A stretch of 10,490 bases of DNA from a virus. Location of the stretch: UHGV virus genome UHGV-1632715. The stretch is one strand, 5' to 3'. Positions 1,869-10,490 of the stretch are shown here, piece by piece (position 1 is the stretch's first letter; every line of letters starts with the position of its first letter). A program made the translations under genes and the position numbers. The notes under the pieces are model-generated. The model did not search any database, was not told the DNA's origin, and saw nothing but the letters and a program-made list of their open reading frames with translations.

Positions 1869-2900
1869 ATGGCTAATGCCTGGCTCAGATTGTGGCATGA
1901 CATGCCAAATGATCCCAAATGGCGAACCATTGCCAGGGTCTCAGGACAGCCAATCGCAACAGTGATGGCGGTGTATATCCACCTTCTGGTGAGTGCGTCA
2001 CGAAATGTCACGACATGTCACGGCGTGTCACTACGTGGTCACATTGATGTCACGACGGAAGATTTAGCAAGTGCGCTTGATGTGACGGAAGACGTAATTG
2101 ATTCAATTTTGCATGCAATGCAGGGGCGGGTTCTGGATGGTGACCTTATTTCCGGATGGGAAAAACGTCAGGTGCTGAAAGAGGACAATGGTAACGTTTC
2201 GCAAACGGCAAAATCCCCGGCAGAGCGCAAGAGAGCGCAGCGGGAGCGGGAAAAGCTGCGGAAACATAATGCTGATTGTCACGATGAGTCACGACGTGTC
2301 ACGCATCTGTCACGACAAGTCACGACAGATAAAGATACAGATACAGAATTAAACCCCACACATAACGCGCGCGAGAGTATTCCGACCAGTGAGTCGAATG
2401 GTGCGCCGTTGCAGACAGCCGAACCTGAATACCTGGACGGCCTGAGCGAACCCATCGGGAAATTTTCGATGACTACTGTCTGGCAGCCGTCGCCGGATTT
2501 TCGACAACGGGCGGCAGTGTGGGGTATGGCTCTGCCTGAGCCGGAATTTACACCTGCTGAGCTTGCCGCATTCCGGGATTACTGGATGGCGGAGGGGAAG
2601 GTTTTCACGCAGGTTCAGTGGGAGCAGAAATTTGCCCGCCACGTGCAGCACGTCAGGGCACAGGTAAAACCAGTCAGCAAGGGGGGAAGCCATGCAGCAT
2701 CAGGTGGCACGGCATCACGGGCAGTTCAGGAAATCCGGGCAGCACGCGAACAGTGGGAACGTGACAACGGATTTATCAGCAACGGAAACGGCCTGGAAGC
2801 TGTGGGAGCTTATGGGGGAGGTGTATTCGAACCGCTGGACTCAGAAGAACGGGGCCGCACCTTCGAAGCTCTGGATTGCCCAGATTGGCACGATGACTGA
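1869..2900 (+). CDS. Replication initiation protein (O-like replisome organizer) with DnaT-like C-terminal region
   Basis: The N-terminal WLRLWHDMPNDPKWRTIA region is replisome-organizer-like. The central/C-terminal segment GKFSMTTVWQPSPDFRQRAAVWGMALPEPEFTPAELAAFRDYWMAEGKVFTQVQWEQKFAR aligns by eye with the E. coli DnaT C-terminal domain. The gene contains two iteron clusters. ATG 1869 is preferred over GTG 1863 because GAGGTGAG at 1858-1865 serves as the SD. Confidence 0.75.
   Translation: MANAWLRLWHDMPNDPKWRTIARVSGQPIATVMAVYIHLLVSASRNVTTCHGVSLRGHIDVTTEDLASALDVTEDVIDSILHAMQGRVLDGDLISGWEKRQVLKEDNGNVSQTAKSPAERKRAQREREKLRKHNADCHDESRRVTHLSRQVTTDKDTDTELNPTHNARESIPTSESNGAPLQTAEPEYLDGLSEPIGKFSMTTVWQPSPDFRQRAAVWGMALPEPEFTPAELAAFRDYWMAEGKVFTQVQWEQKFARHVQHVRAQVKPVSKGGSHAASGGTASRAVQEIRAAREQWERDNGFISNGNGLEAVGAYGGGVFEPLDSEERGRTFEALDCPDWHDD
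1997..2058. repeat. Iteron cluster 1: about six GTCAC(G)-core repeats at ~10-bp phasing
   Basis: Repeat starts at 1997, 2007, 2017, 2027, ~2038 and 2049 (gtcacgaaat / gtcacgacat / gtcacggcgt / gtcactacgt / ggtcacattgat / gtcacgacgg), inside the initiator gene. Confidence 0.6.
2278..2329. repeat. Iteron cluster 2: five GTCACG-core repeats at ~10-bp phasing, followed by an A/T-rich stretch
   Basis: Repeat starts at 2278, 2288, 2298, 2309 and 2319, followed by gataaagatacagatacagaattaaa at 2330-2355. Confidence 0.6.
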
Positions 2901-3354
2901 ACAGCAAATCCGGCTGGTCTGCCGTCAGTGCATGGACCGCTGCCGGGCGGGTGAAACGTGGCCCCCGGACCTGGCTGAGTTTGTTGCGCTGATTTCGGAG
3001 AGTGGGGCAAATCCATTTGGTCTTACGGTGGATGCCGTGATGGAAGAGTACCGGCGCTGGCGCAATGAATCCTGGCGATACGACGGGAGTGATAAATACC
3101 CGTGGCCACAGCCTGTGCTGTACCACATCTGCCTCGAAATGCGTACCAGAGGGATTGAGCGCCAGATGACGCAGGGTGAGTTAAAACGACTTGCGGAACG
3201 GCAACTGACGAAATGGGCAAAGCATGTTGGTAACGGGATGAGTGTTCCGCCAGTGCGACGACAACTGGAAGGGGCGAAACACCCGCAAGGGCCAACGCCA
3301 ATTGAACGGCTGAAACAGGAATACGAACGCCGGAAGGCAGCTGGTTTTATTTGA
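2692..3354 (+). CDS. Replication protein P-like (helicase loader family of lambda P)
   Basis: By-eye similarity to lambda P: YPWPQPVLYHICLEMR vs YPWKSNAHYWLVTNLYQNMR, GMSVPPVRRQLEG vs GEAIPEPVKQLPVMGG, and an upstream TMTEQQ-like segment. ATG 2692 is preceded by GGGGGG at 2681-2686. It overlaps the initiator gene by 209 nt in another frame; alternative starts are 2812 and 2893. Confidence 0.7.
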   Translation: MQHQVARHHGQFRKSGQHANSGNVTTDLSATETAWKLWELMGEVYSNRWTQKNGAAPSKLWIAQIGTMTEQQIRLVCRQCMDRCRAGETWPPDLAEFVALISESGANPFGLTVDAVMEEYRRWRNESWRYDGSDKYPWPQPVLYHICLEMRTRGIERQMTQGELKRLAERQLTKWAKHVGNGMSVPPVRRQLEGAKHPQGPTPIERLKQEYERRKAAGFI

Positions 3355-6950: not shown

Positions 6951-6964
6951 GCGGGTGCTTGAGG
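6951..6964 (+). promoter_or_regulatory. 5' element of hok mRNA (tac-like) complementary to the 3' fbi-like element
   Basis: GCGGGTGCTTGAGG is the near-perfect reverse complement of CCTCAACGCACCCGC at 7329-7343, with one unpaired base. Confidence 0.55.
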
Positions 6965-7065
6965 CTATCTGTCTCAGGCATGAACACCAAAAGGCAGATA
7001 GAGAAAAGCCCCAGTTAACATTACGCGTCCGGCAAGACGCTTAACATTAATCTGAGGCCATATCT

Positions 7066-7272
7066 ATGCTCTACACACGTAGGTTAGCCTCTTACGGACC
7101 GAAAGGTCAAGGAGAAGCAGGCTATGAAGCAGCAAAAGGCGATGTTAATCGCCCTGATCGTCATCTGTTTAACCGTCATAGTGACGGCACTGGTAACGAG
7201 GAAAGACCTCTGCGAGGTACGAATCCGAACCGGCCAGACGGAGGTCGCTGTCTTCACAGCTTACGAACCTGA
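7066..7272 (+). CDS. mok-like overlapping reading frame (modulator of hok translation)
   Basis: 68-aa ORF in a different frame that starts 58 nt upstream of hok and spans almost all of it, as in hok/mok loci. Confidence 0.45.
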   Translation: MLYTRRLASYGPKGQGEAGYEAAKGDVNRPDRHLFNRHSDGTGNEERPLRGTNPNRPDGGRCLHSLRT

Positions 7273-10146: not shown

Positions 10147-10466
10147 ATTTGTGGTAAATGGGCGGCTGGTGGGTGTGGTGGTTGTTGCTTTCCCGTTGCT
10201 GAAAAAGAAAGCATCAGGCGATTAGCAGGGTATCAGTTACCCGTTGAAATTTTTAAATACCTCACAATTCAGGCGGTTGACTGTTGTCTGGTTTGCGGGG
10301 AGTTTGTTAAAAGAAACTGGCATGGTGAATCCCCCTGTGCGGAGGGGCAATCAGCAACTGGTGTTTTGTCACCGACCCTTATCCTTTCTGTGCGGGTTCA
10401 GGTGCTGATACTGAACTCACCGGGAGGCACCCGGCACCATGCAATGGCACATAGCGCCACTCTCCA

Positions 10467-10490
10467 GCCCCTCTCCGGAGGGGCTTTCTT
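10467..10490 (+). terminator. Hairpin with short T-rich tail, possible terminator, truncated by window end
   Basis: Stem GCCCCTC / GAGGGGC with loop TCCG, followed by tttctt. Confidence 0.35.

Follow-up and report, generated by a model that had tools for sequence, protein, structure and literature searches.

A putative iteron-type replication origin with two phased arrays inside the initiator gene of a CP-933P/Sp12-like lambdoid prophage

The initiator gene of a lambdoid prophage of the CP-933P/Sp12 type probably contains the vegetative replication origin of that same prophage, as judged from comparative sequence analysis. The putative origin is of the iteron type and consists of two arrays of short, helically phased direct repeats and a purine-rich A/T tract that abuts the second array. 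The window, i.e. the whole stretch of 10,490 nucleotides that was analyzed (UHGV virus genome UHGV-1632715), is the immunity and replication region of such an E. coli prophage. The − strand encodes parE2, paaA2, and paaR2 (the cI analogue) at positions 8-1007. A cro-like gene (1115-1378) and a YdaT/cII-like gene (1375-1800) come next, followed on the + strand by the replication initiator gene (1869..2900), the product of which has 343 residues, and by a λ-P-like helicase loader gene (2893..3354). The start of the loader gene overlaps the stop of the initiator gene (ATGACTGA), and its product matches Pfam PF06992 (E = 3e-15) as well as phrog_109, the P-like helicase loader family (E = 4.5e-54). 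Genes for DUF1627 and DUF977 (Ren-like) proteins are located downstream of the loader gene. In a paper on CP-933P, the repeat-bearing gene is termed 'a homolog of o', and no origin analysis accompanies the term (PMC8630535). CP-933P-type prophages are described there as cryptic (PMC8630535), and hence the window's own copy of the origin may no longer fire.

The initiator ORF carries eleven direct copies of the GTCAC(G) repeat on its + strand, grouped in two clusters. The proximal cluster, referred to as array 1, spans 1997..2054 and contains six GTCAC(G) iterons, with GTCAC at 1997, 2007, 2017, 2027, 2038, and 2049, in steps of 10, 10, 10, 11, and 11 bp. The distal cluster, referred to as array 2, spans 2278..2324 and contains five GTCACG iterons, with GTCAC at 2278, 2288, 2298, 2309, and 2319, in steps of 10, 10, 11, and 10 bp. 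The sequence-only reading had proposed about eleven such repeats in two clusters, phased with the helix and embedded in the initiator gene. All of these points hold: the spacing of 10–11 bp corresponds to one copy per helical turn throughout, the orientation is uniform among the eleven direct copies, and both arrays lie within the ORF 1869-2900. GTCACG is the full form of nine of the eleven copies. Only the six core bases are informative, and the 4-bp spacers between cores carry almost no information and vary freely across relatives. Tandem Repeats Finder called period-10 arrays at 1997-2042 and 2278-2326, and additionally a 21-bp period in array 2. Array 1 is located upstream of array 2 and separated from it by about 230 bp. 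That this distance is constant carries no information, as the intervening DNA codes for a conserved domain free of indels.

The enrichment of the motif is far above chance. Counted on both strands of the whole window, GTCAC occurs 31 times, compared with 17.5 ± 4.1 times in shuffled sequences. Going by the shuffle frequency, one strand of 333 bp should hold about 0.28 copies, which gives a Poisson probability of about 1.5e-14 for eleven or more. Neither the motif count nor Tandem Repeats Finder revealed another repeat cluster of similar kind in the window. Aside from the direct copies, a single inverted copy (GTCACA on the − strand) is located at 2081..2086, 33 bp downstream of array 1. Another inverted match at 2140 lacks conservation in relatives and is probably due to chance. 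The arrays had been considered different from CRISPR, and rightly so: a 6-bp core with a period of 10–11 bp in a conserved ORF is unlike CRISPR repeats, which are about 24–48 bp long and alternate with unique spacers of similar length. Between positions 1000 and 3500, promoters and terminators were predicted in numbers at the level of shuffled sequences. A promoter-like match on the minus strand, running from 2302 to 2275, was rejected, as it is built of iteron complements and scores only 9/12.

The initiator protein is composed of an N-terminal domain with a predicted winged-helix fold (residues 1 to about 135), a disordered linker (about residues 144–190), and a DnaT-like ssDNA-binding domain (residues 199–265; Pfam PF17948), which is encoded by 2463..2663 on the + strand. 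The DnaT-like domain is the only Pfam match of the full-length initiator. In a Foldseek comparison, it superposes on the DnaT structures 4ou6 and 6aeq with a TM-score of about 0.9 and a sequence identity of 57–58%. The likeness to E. coli DnaT is confined to this domain, whereas the N-terminal half and the phage context are different. An identity as full-length DnaT was rejected, since the initiator scores 94.5 bits against NF002770, the equivalog cutoff of which is 201, and only the ssDNA-binding domain matches. The initiator also matches PHROG replication-initiation families, and some of its relatives are named 'phage replisome organizer' by NCBI. As for the N domain, four diverse representatives matched no Pfam model in hmmscan at E ≤ 10, and in NCBIfam the initiator matched DnaT alone, with nothing for the N domain. 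Hence, the protein cannot be assigned to the O-like or the Phage_rep_org_N group. In structure comparison, the putative winged-helix fold of the N domain appears closest to those of the DnaD N-terminal domain and the plasmid initiator RepA. Array 1 encodes residues 43–62, which form the end of helix 3 and the loop/hairpin before helix 4; this loop is a lower-confidence region of the predicted structure. Array 2 encodes residues 137–152, where the disordered interdomain linker begins.

Directly abutting array 2 is the purine-rich A/T tract (2325..2356, + strand; ACAGATAAAGATACAGATACAGAATTAAACCC), a putative DNA-unwinding element. It is 32 bp long, with an A+T content of 69% and a purine content of 66% on the + strand. 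The tract comprises (ACAGAT)n / GATAMA repeats, called by Tandem Repeats Finder as a period-6 ACAGAT array at 2325-2347, followed by AATTAAACC. The 30-mer starting at 2324 is the least stable one in the whole initiator gene, its nearest-neighbour dG being −32.1 while 30-mers of the window have a mean of −41.2 with a standard deviation of 3.5. The A/T-rich stretch that the sequence-only reading had placed after the second cluster is thus confirmed. In most tract-bearing loci, the tract begins 8–10 bp beyond the first base of the last iteron copy. It encodes DKDTDTE, which is inside the disordered part of the protein, and it stays GATAAA/GATACA even where the G+C content of the host is 60–70%.

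In E. coli, the matches fall into three classes, namely full-length matches, matches to the N-terminal part only (query 6-548), and matches to the C-terminal part only (from query 530-551). As the match breaks at query 530-551, the breakpoint corresponds to window positions 2329-2350, i.e. the tract, which is therefore the mosaic joint. The same C-terminal half, together with the same P gene, is carried by two other initiator types. The first one has a DUF1376/YdaU domain at its N terminus (Rac-SA53 and TW08637), and the second one, found in strain TK3046, has an unrelated N-terminal half that matched no family, its annotation naming just a DnaT-like ssDNA-binding domain. Both types carry repeats of their own (TGTTCAAACA; ACCCAAAAACGG) just upstream of the common tract, and the tract junction, AAAGATACAGAT...AATTAAACCCCACACATAAC, is common to these initiator types. 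The N domain and its arrays, for their part, pair not only with DnaT-like C-terminal parts but also with Phg_2220_C or unassigned ones. The layout, in which a specificity module (N domain and iterons) is followed by an unwinding tract and a loader-interaction module, is the classical lambdoid arrangement. The tract is retained with different N domains as well as with different C-terminal domains, and its reader is therefore not necessarily the DnaT-like domain. Part of the tract conservation may come from a role as a recombination linker and from generic unwinding properties, and not from recognition by the DnaT-like domain.

The mosaic joint bears on the alternative that the initiator binds the arrays solely for regulation, through autorepression of pR transcription, titration, or handcuffing as by P1 incA, and that the origin is elsewhere in the prophage. 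Two separated arrays resemble those of plasmids with a control array, such as P1 and F. Besides, both arrays sit in a transcribed gene, and no A/T tract accompanies array 1. However, array 2 keeps a fixed place beside the gene's least stable tract, other initiator types have this array-plus-tract unit as their joint too, as in λ-type origins, and no further repeat cluster of this kind is present in the window. We consider a purely regulatory role unlikely, and retain the iteron-type origin as the preferred reading.

The region is widespread and its layout is conserved. A megablast search found it in 1267 of 5426 complete E. coli genomes, with a full-length match in 658 (about 12%). All E. coli relatives that were fetched have kept both arrays, with 4 to 6 copies per array. 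The window exceeds most relatives by 21 bp in each array; in array 1, the extra 21 bp contain two iterons and add seven residues to a loop with pLDDT below 50. In G5295, a strain of O157:H7, array 2 is longer by a single 10-bp unit, and the gene is annotated as a frameshifted pseudogene. Beyond E. coli, a search with the N domain gave 880 protein clusters, and a genome scan gave 63 loci distributed over Gamma-, Beta-, and Alphaproteobacteria, Acidobacteria, and further groups, the locus G+C content being 33–70%. Pseudomonas, Bordetella, Klebsiella, Serratia, and even Acidobacteria have prophages with the module. Among 50,697 phage records, 24 contain the N domain, and no model phage is among them.

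Of the 63 loci, 61 were usable for a census of arrays. Two phased arrays occupy the same two gene positions in 41 of these, so the split into two arrays, which had been regarded as unusual, is instead the norm for the family. Ten loci have the distal array alone, five were scored as having the proximal array only, and five have no array. In our judgement, the five proximal-only loci are for the most part artefacts or distal arrays of just two copies. Array 2 together with the tract occurs in nearly all relatives. Array 1 is absent from about ten loci, and in one locus (L059) it is displaced to another part of the domain.

The repeat core varies by clade. It reads GTCACG, GTAACG, CGAACGC, or GTGACGC, with the positions in the gene unchanged. 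All of these forms have ACG(C) in common and vary in the three bases before it. The core types largely track a tree of the N domain that was built without the iteron-encoded residues, with a few apparent switches. This concordance weighs against the possibility that the repeats are bound by another protein, either a host factor or a further DNA-binding protein of the phage, such as the DUF1627 or DUF977 (Ren-like) product. The evidence on the identity of the binding protein is indirect, and the survival of the tract upon exchange of either domain would fit a different binder. On the other hand, the core largely follows the N-domain phylogeny from Acidobacteria to Enterobacteria, which is hard to reconcile with a single host factor. 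Nor are the repeats sites for known candidates: the IHF consensus is absent from the whole window, DnaA-box-like matches are at chance level in the window with none in the arrays, and a role of the arrays as extra cI/cro-like operators was rejected, as the operators at about 1030-1085 carry a different motif. Binding by another protein is hence very unlikely, and the initiator itself is the better candidate.

Selection at the DNA level is evident from codon usage. The test set contains 24 GTCAC-clade relatives with a GC3 of 0.30–0.83; these sequences are mutually related, and arrays and controls were compared within the same sequences. In array 1, the codons of Val47 (GTC), Thr48 (ACG), Gly57 (GGT), and Val61 (GTC) are each frozen in 24 of 24 relatives. 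In array 2, the same is true of His138 (CAC, 22 of 22), Ser148 (TCA, 24 of 24), and Val151 (GTC, 24 of 24). Equally conserved valine, threonine, serine, and glycine residues outside the arrays use all of their codons. The relative codon entropy is 0.14 for array 1, 0.17 for array 2, and 0.25 for the tract, compared with 0.83 for 64 other conserved columns, and the difference between arrays and control columns is significant (Mann-Whitney p = 2.5e-9). In the tract, the aspartate and lysine codons are GAT and AAA in 13–22 of 14–22 relatives, whatever the G+C content, whereas aspartate and lysine outside the tract prefer GAC and AAG. The hexamer is translated in all three frames, giving VT, SR, and CH or GH, respectively, and the constraint therefore acts on the nucleic acid and not on the peptide. 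Taken across a locus G+C content of 33–70%, the comparison strongly supports DNA-level selection on the arrays and the tract. What such conservation shows is a function at the DNA or RNA level, without telling which function it is.

The inverted copy helps to distinguish between the two levels. Most loci of the GTCAC clade have it at an identical offset, and the codon of Val72 is GTG in 20 of 20. In one locus of the GTAAC clade (L034), the inverted position reads GTTAC, i.e. the inverted form of that locus's own core. This change of the inverted copy together with the core, observed in one locus, argues for recognition of duplex DNA. Alternatively, the GUCACG motifs might act on the mRNA, as sites for a translational regulator or as part of an mRNA structure. 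The sense strand carries all eleven direct copies, and synonymous-site conservation would look the same for a DNA or an RNA function. Nevertheless, an RNA-level role is highly improbable in view of the conserved inverted copy, the 10–11 bp spacing, which is the helical repeat of duplex DNA, and the link of the arrays with a recombination joint and a duplex tract of low stability. The idea that the repeats are functionless, being either a microsatellite-like product of slippage or a low-complexity protein segment, could appeal to the variable copy number (21 bp more per array in the window than in most relatives, and the 10-bp frameshift in G5295), but it has next to no credibility, as the layout is constant while the core changes, and the three-frame reading together with synonymous sites frozen over the whole GC3 range rules out both a protein repeat and neutral slippage.

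We infer from these comparisons how the putative origin may work: the N domain would bind, the tract would melt, the helicase would be loaded, and the two arrays would differ in their roles. The GTCACG cores are candidate binding sites, or iterons, for the winged-helix N domain of the initiator, one per helical turn. The origin core would consist of array 2 (2278-2324) and the abutting tract (2325-2356). Initiators lined up on array 2 would destabilize the tract, which would then open, and the DnaT-like C-terminal half, together with the P-like loader, would recruit the DnaB helicase of the host to the melted stretch. We assign array 2 and the tract to the core because they are nearly universal, because array 2 abuts the least stable DNA, and because they are located in the linker and at the mosaic joint. 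Array 1 and the inverted copy at 2081-2086 would serve as an auxiliary site upstream, given that about ten loci lack array 1 and that L059 has it at another place. The auxiliary site might be stimulatory, strengthening initiator assembly by, for example, looping to array 2 or raising the local concentration of initiator. It might also be restraining, acting through titration, handcuffing, or a block to transcription through the gene.

A more elaborate two-site logic is conceivable, and we put it forward as a doubtful extension. Array 2 and the periodic (GATAMA)n tract, which lies about 9 bp beyond the last iteron copy, would be comparable to a phage version of the DnaA-box/DnaA-trio system, in which initiators bound to the duplex iterons pass one strand of the periodic tract to their ssDNA-binding modules. 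Array 1 and the inverted copy would form a loop or roadblock and, lying in the DNA for a loop of the binding domain, would couple synthesis of the initiator to occupancy of the origin. The core would be reprogrammable, its specificity being changed via the three bases 5' of the constant ACG(C).

The simpler model, an iteron-type origin with a core and an auxiliary array, was compared with known systems. The principle of building an origin from iterons and an A/T tract within the initiator gene is textbook knowledge in the case of λ. The λ ori lies between the N-terminal part of O, which binds DNA, and the C-terminal part, which interacts with the loader, and N- and C-terminal modules recombine at the origin; every iteron has the form of an inverted repeat, to which a dimer of O binds. 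Like λ, the prophage studied here has iterons in the initiator ORF, an A/T-rich tract on one side of them, and the gene of a P-type loader next to it. In λ, an array of four iterons of about 19 bp and an AT-rich tract are found in the middle of O, and the O protein binds ssDNA (PMC7466680). In Stx phages, extra iterons (six in total) lengthen O and are needed for replication (PMC7466680); in a similar way, extra iterons add residues here, with each gain or loss of 21 bp corresponding to seven residues. In contrast to the single array of ~19-bp iterons in λ, the window has two arrays of 6-bp direct cores, and its initiator, with DnaT as its only Pfam match and a DnaT-like C-terminal half, is not homologous to O. 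The likeness to the λ ori in O that the sequence-only reading had drawn therefore stands for the origin-in-gene layout, the tract, the joint, and the P-like loader, but does not extend to the initiator.

The same principle is known for replisome organizers of Gram-positive phages and for RepA_N plasmids. The RepA protein of RepA_N plasmids (pSK41/pTZ2162, PDB 4pta) and the N-terminal domain of DnaD are among the closest known systems. According to the description of PF09681/TIGR01714, which covers lactococcal replisome organizers, a low-complexity region of the protein reflects direct repeats in the DNA that serve as the origin. Repeat-encoded stretches of VT, SR, and CH are present in the initiator here. 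In SPP1, oriL is inside gene 38 and comprises direct repeats as well as an AT-rich DNA-unwinding element bound by G38P (PMC6316719). The replisome organizers of SPP1 and lactococcal phages share with the present system the placement of repeats and an AT-rich stretch within the initiator gene. They differ in that PF09681 has no detectable match to the four N domains (hmmscan, E ≤ 10), and in that their hosts are Gram-positive, whereas the present family is found in Proteobacteria and Acidobacteria. Moreover, the second origin of SPP1 is 13 kb away, while the second array here is within the same gene.

Two separated clusters of the same iteron, one belonging to the origin core and the other having an auxiliary or regulatory role, also occur in P1 (incC/incA), F ori2, P4 (ori/crr), and the SaPI ori. 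In the SaPI ori, the two iteron sets flank an AT-rich region. In these systems, the arrays flank the initiator gene or are kilobases apart, whereas both arrays here are within the coding sequence, where they encode a loop and a linker of their own presumed binding protein. Furthermore, the A/T tract here is outside the array pair and not between the arrays.

The literature, searched by topic and by iteron sequence, yielded no description of this origin or of the N-domain family. Regarding the 'Eru' types of Stx phages, the gene lists of Eru1-3 contain no match to the module, and the two papers on these types mention neither iterons nor DnaT. In the literature found, four features are undescribed: the initiator family itself, with an N domain that has no Pfam model; the conserved two-array layout within one ORF; the 6-bp direct cores spaced one per turn, with clade-wise switching of the three bases before ACG(C); and the conserved periodic purine tract.

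The logic of the proposed origin will not surprise a replication specialist, but the system is solid, widespread, and tractable. If the model is true, it would define the origin and the initiator specificity code of an unstudied replication module with full-length matches in roughly 12% of the complete genomes of E. coli, O157:H7 prophages of the CP-933P/Sp12 type among them. It would be of practical use for annotating origins in such prophages, and for obtaining compatible or incompatible phage-derived replicons. The coding sequence is a clear example of double constraint, with presumed regulatory DNA placed where the protein has a loop and a linker. The family is also a natural experiment, in which the scaffold and the layout are constant while the core of 6–7 bp exists in at least four forms, and it is thus suited to learning how a winged-helix initiator reads its iteron.

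The window carries, at 8-1007 on the minus strand, a three-gene toxin-antitoxin operon, paaR2-paaA2-parE2, which identifies it as a CP-933P/Sp12-type immunity region (PMC8630535). The operon consists of the ParE_toxin gene parE2 (8-298), PaaA2 (298-489), and the HTH cI-like regulator paaR2 (507-1007), all on the minus strand. Two small RNAs were matched by Rfam on the plus strand, namely the sok antitoxin RNA at 6953-7126 (109.5 bits) and the sRNA STnc100 at 10291-10490 (132.5 bits), the latter clipped by the window end. A small ORF at 7066-7272 overlaps the sok match and is placed where a hok-type toxin is expected.

The iterons are the GTCAC(G) repeats inside the initiator gene. On the minus strand, a weak sigma-70-like match (GTGACA-16-GACAAT, 9/12) lies at 2275-2302; it consists of iteron complements, and the overall number of sigma-70-like matches is at chance level. 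The distal array varies in copy number, with L002, the locus of E. coli O157:H7 G5295, having six copies at 679-735 instead of five, a gain of 10 bp. The G5295 initiator gene is frameshifted in the RefSeq annotation. Slippage by a 10-bp iteron unit would knock out the initiator gene, while array differences of 21 bp (two units) between relatives preserve the reading frame. In the initiator protein search, very many database entries are labelled 'partial' (185-280 aa), which points to frequent breaks of short-read assemblies within the initiator gene or close to it, possibly owing to its presence in several related prophages.

The proximal array differs in position in one relative. In L059, from a Gemmataceae MAG, the proximal CGAACGC array lies at gene offsets 192-222, about 60 bp deeper than in all other members, where the alignment places helix 63-70 of the window's initiator protein. 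This shift implies that an upstream array was gained or relocated independently. L054 (Serratia MAG) and L065 (Pantoea) have the conserved N domain followed by a different C-terminal part with the motif YVYYV...GIS.NPW.R. After the N domain, at gene offsets ~320-470, they carry CTACGTAG-type repeats, and the GATAMA tract, the purine-rich A/T tract that abuts the distal array in the window, is absent there. These two loci look like a divergent architecture.

The C-terminal half of the window's initiator and the P gene, encoding a lambda-P-like helicase loader, are common to three other E. coli prophage initiators. L071 and L073 are DUF1376/YdaU-type initiators, and L072 has an unrelated N-terminal half with no family assigned. 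Directly 5' of the same A/T junction, L071/L073 and L072 have their own, different repeats (TGTTCAAACA; ACCCAAAAACGG), which are probably origins of other specificities.
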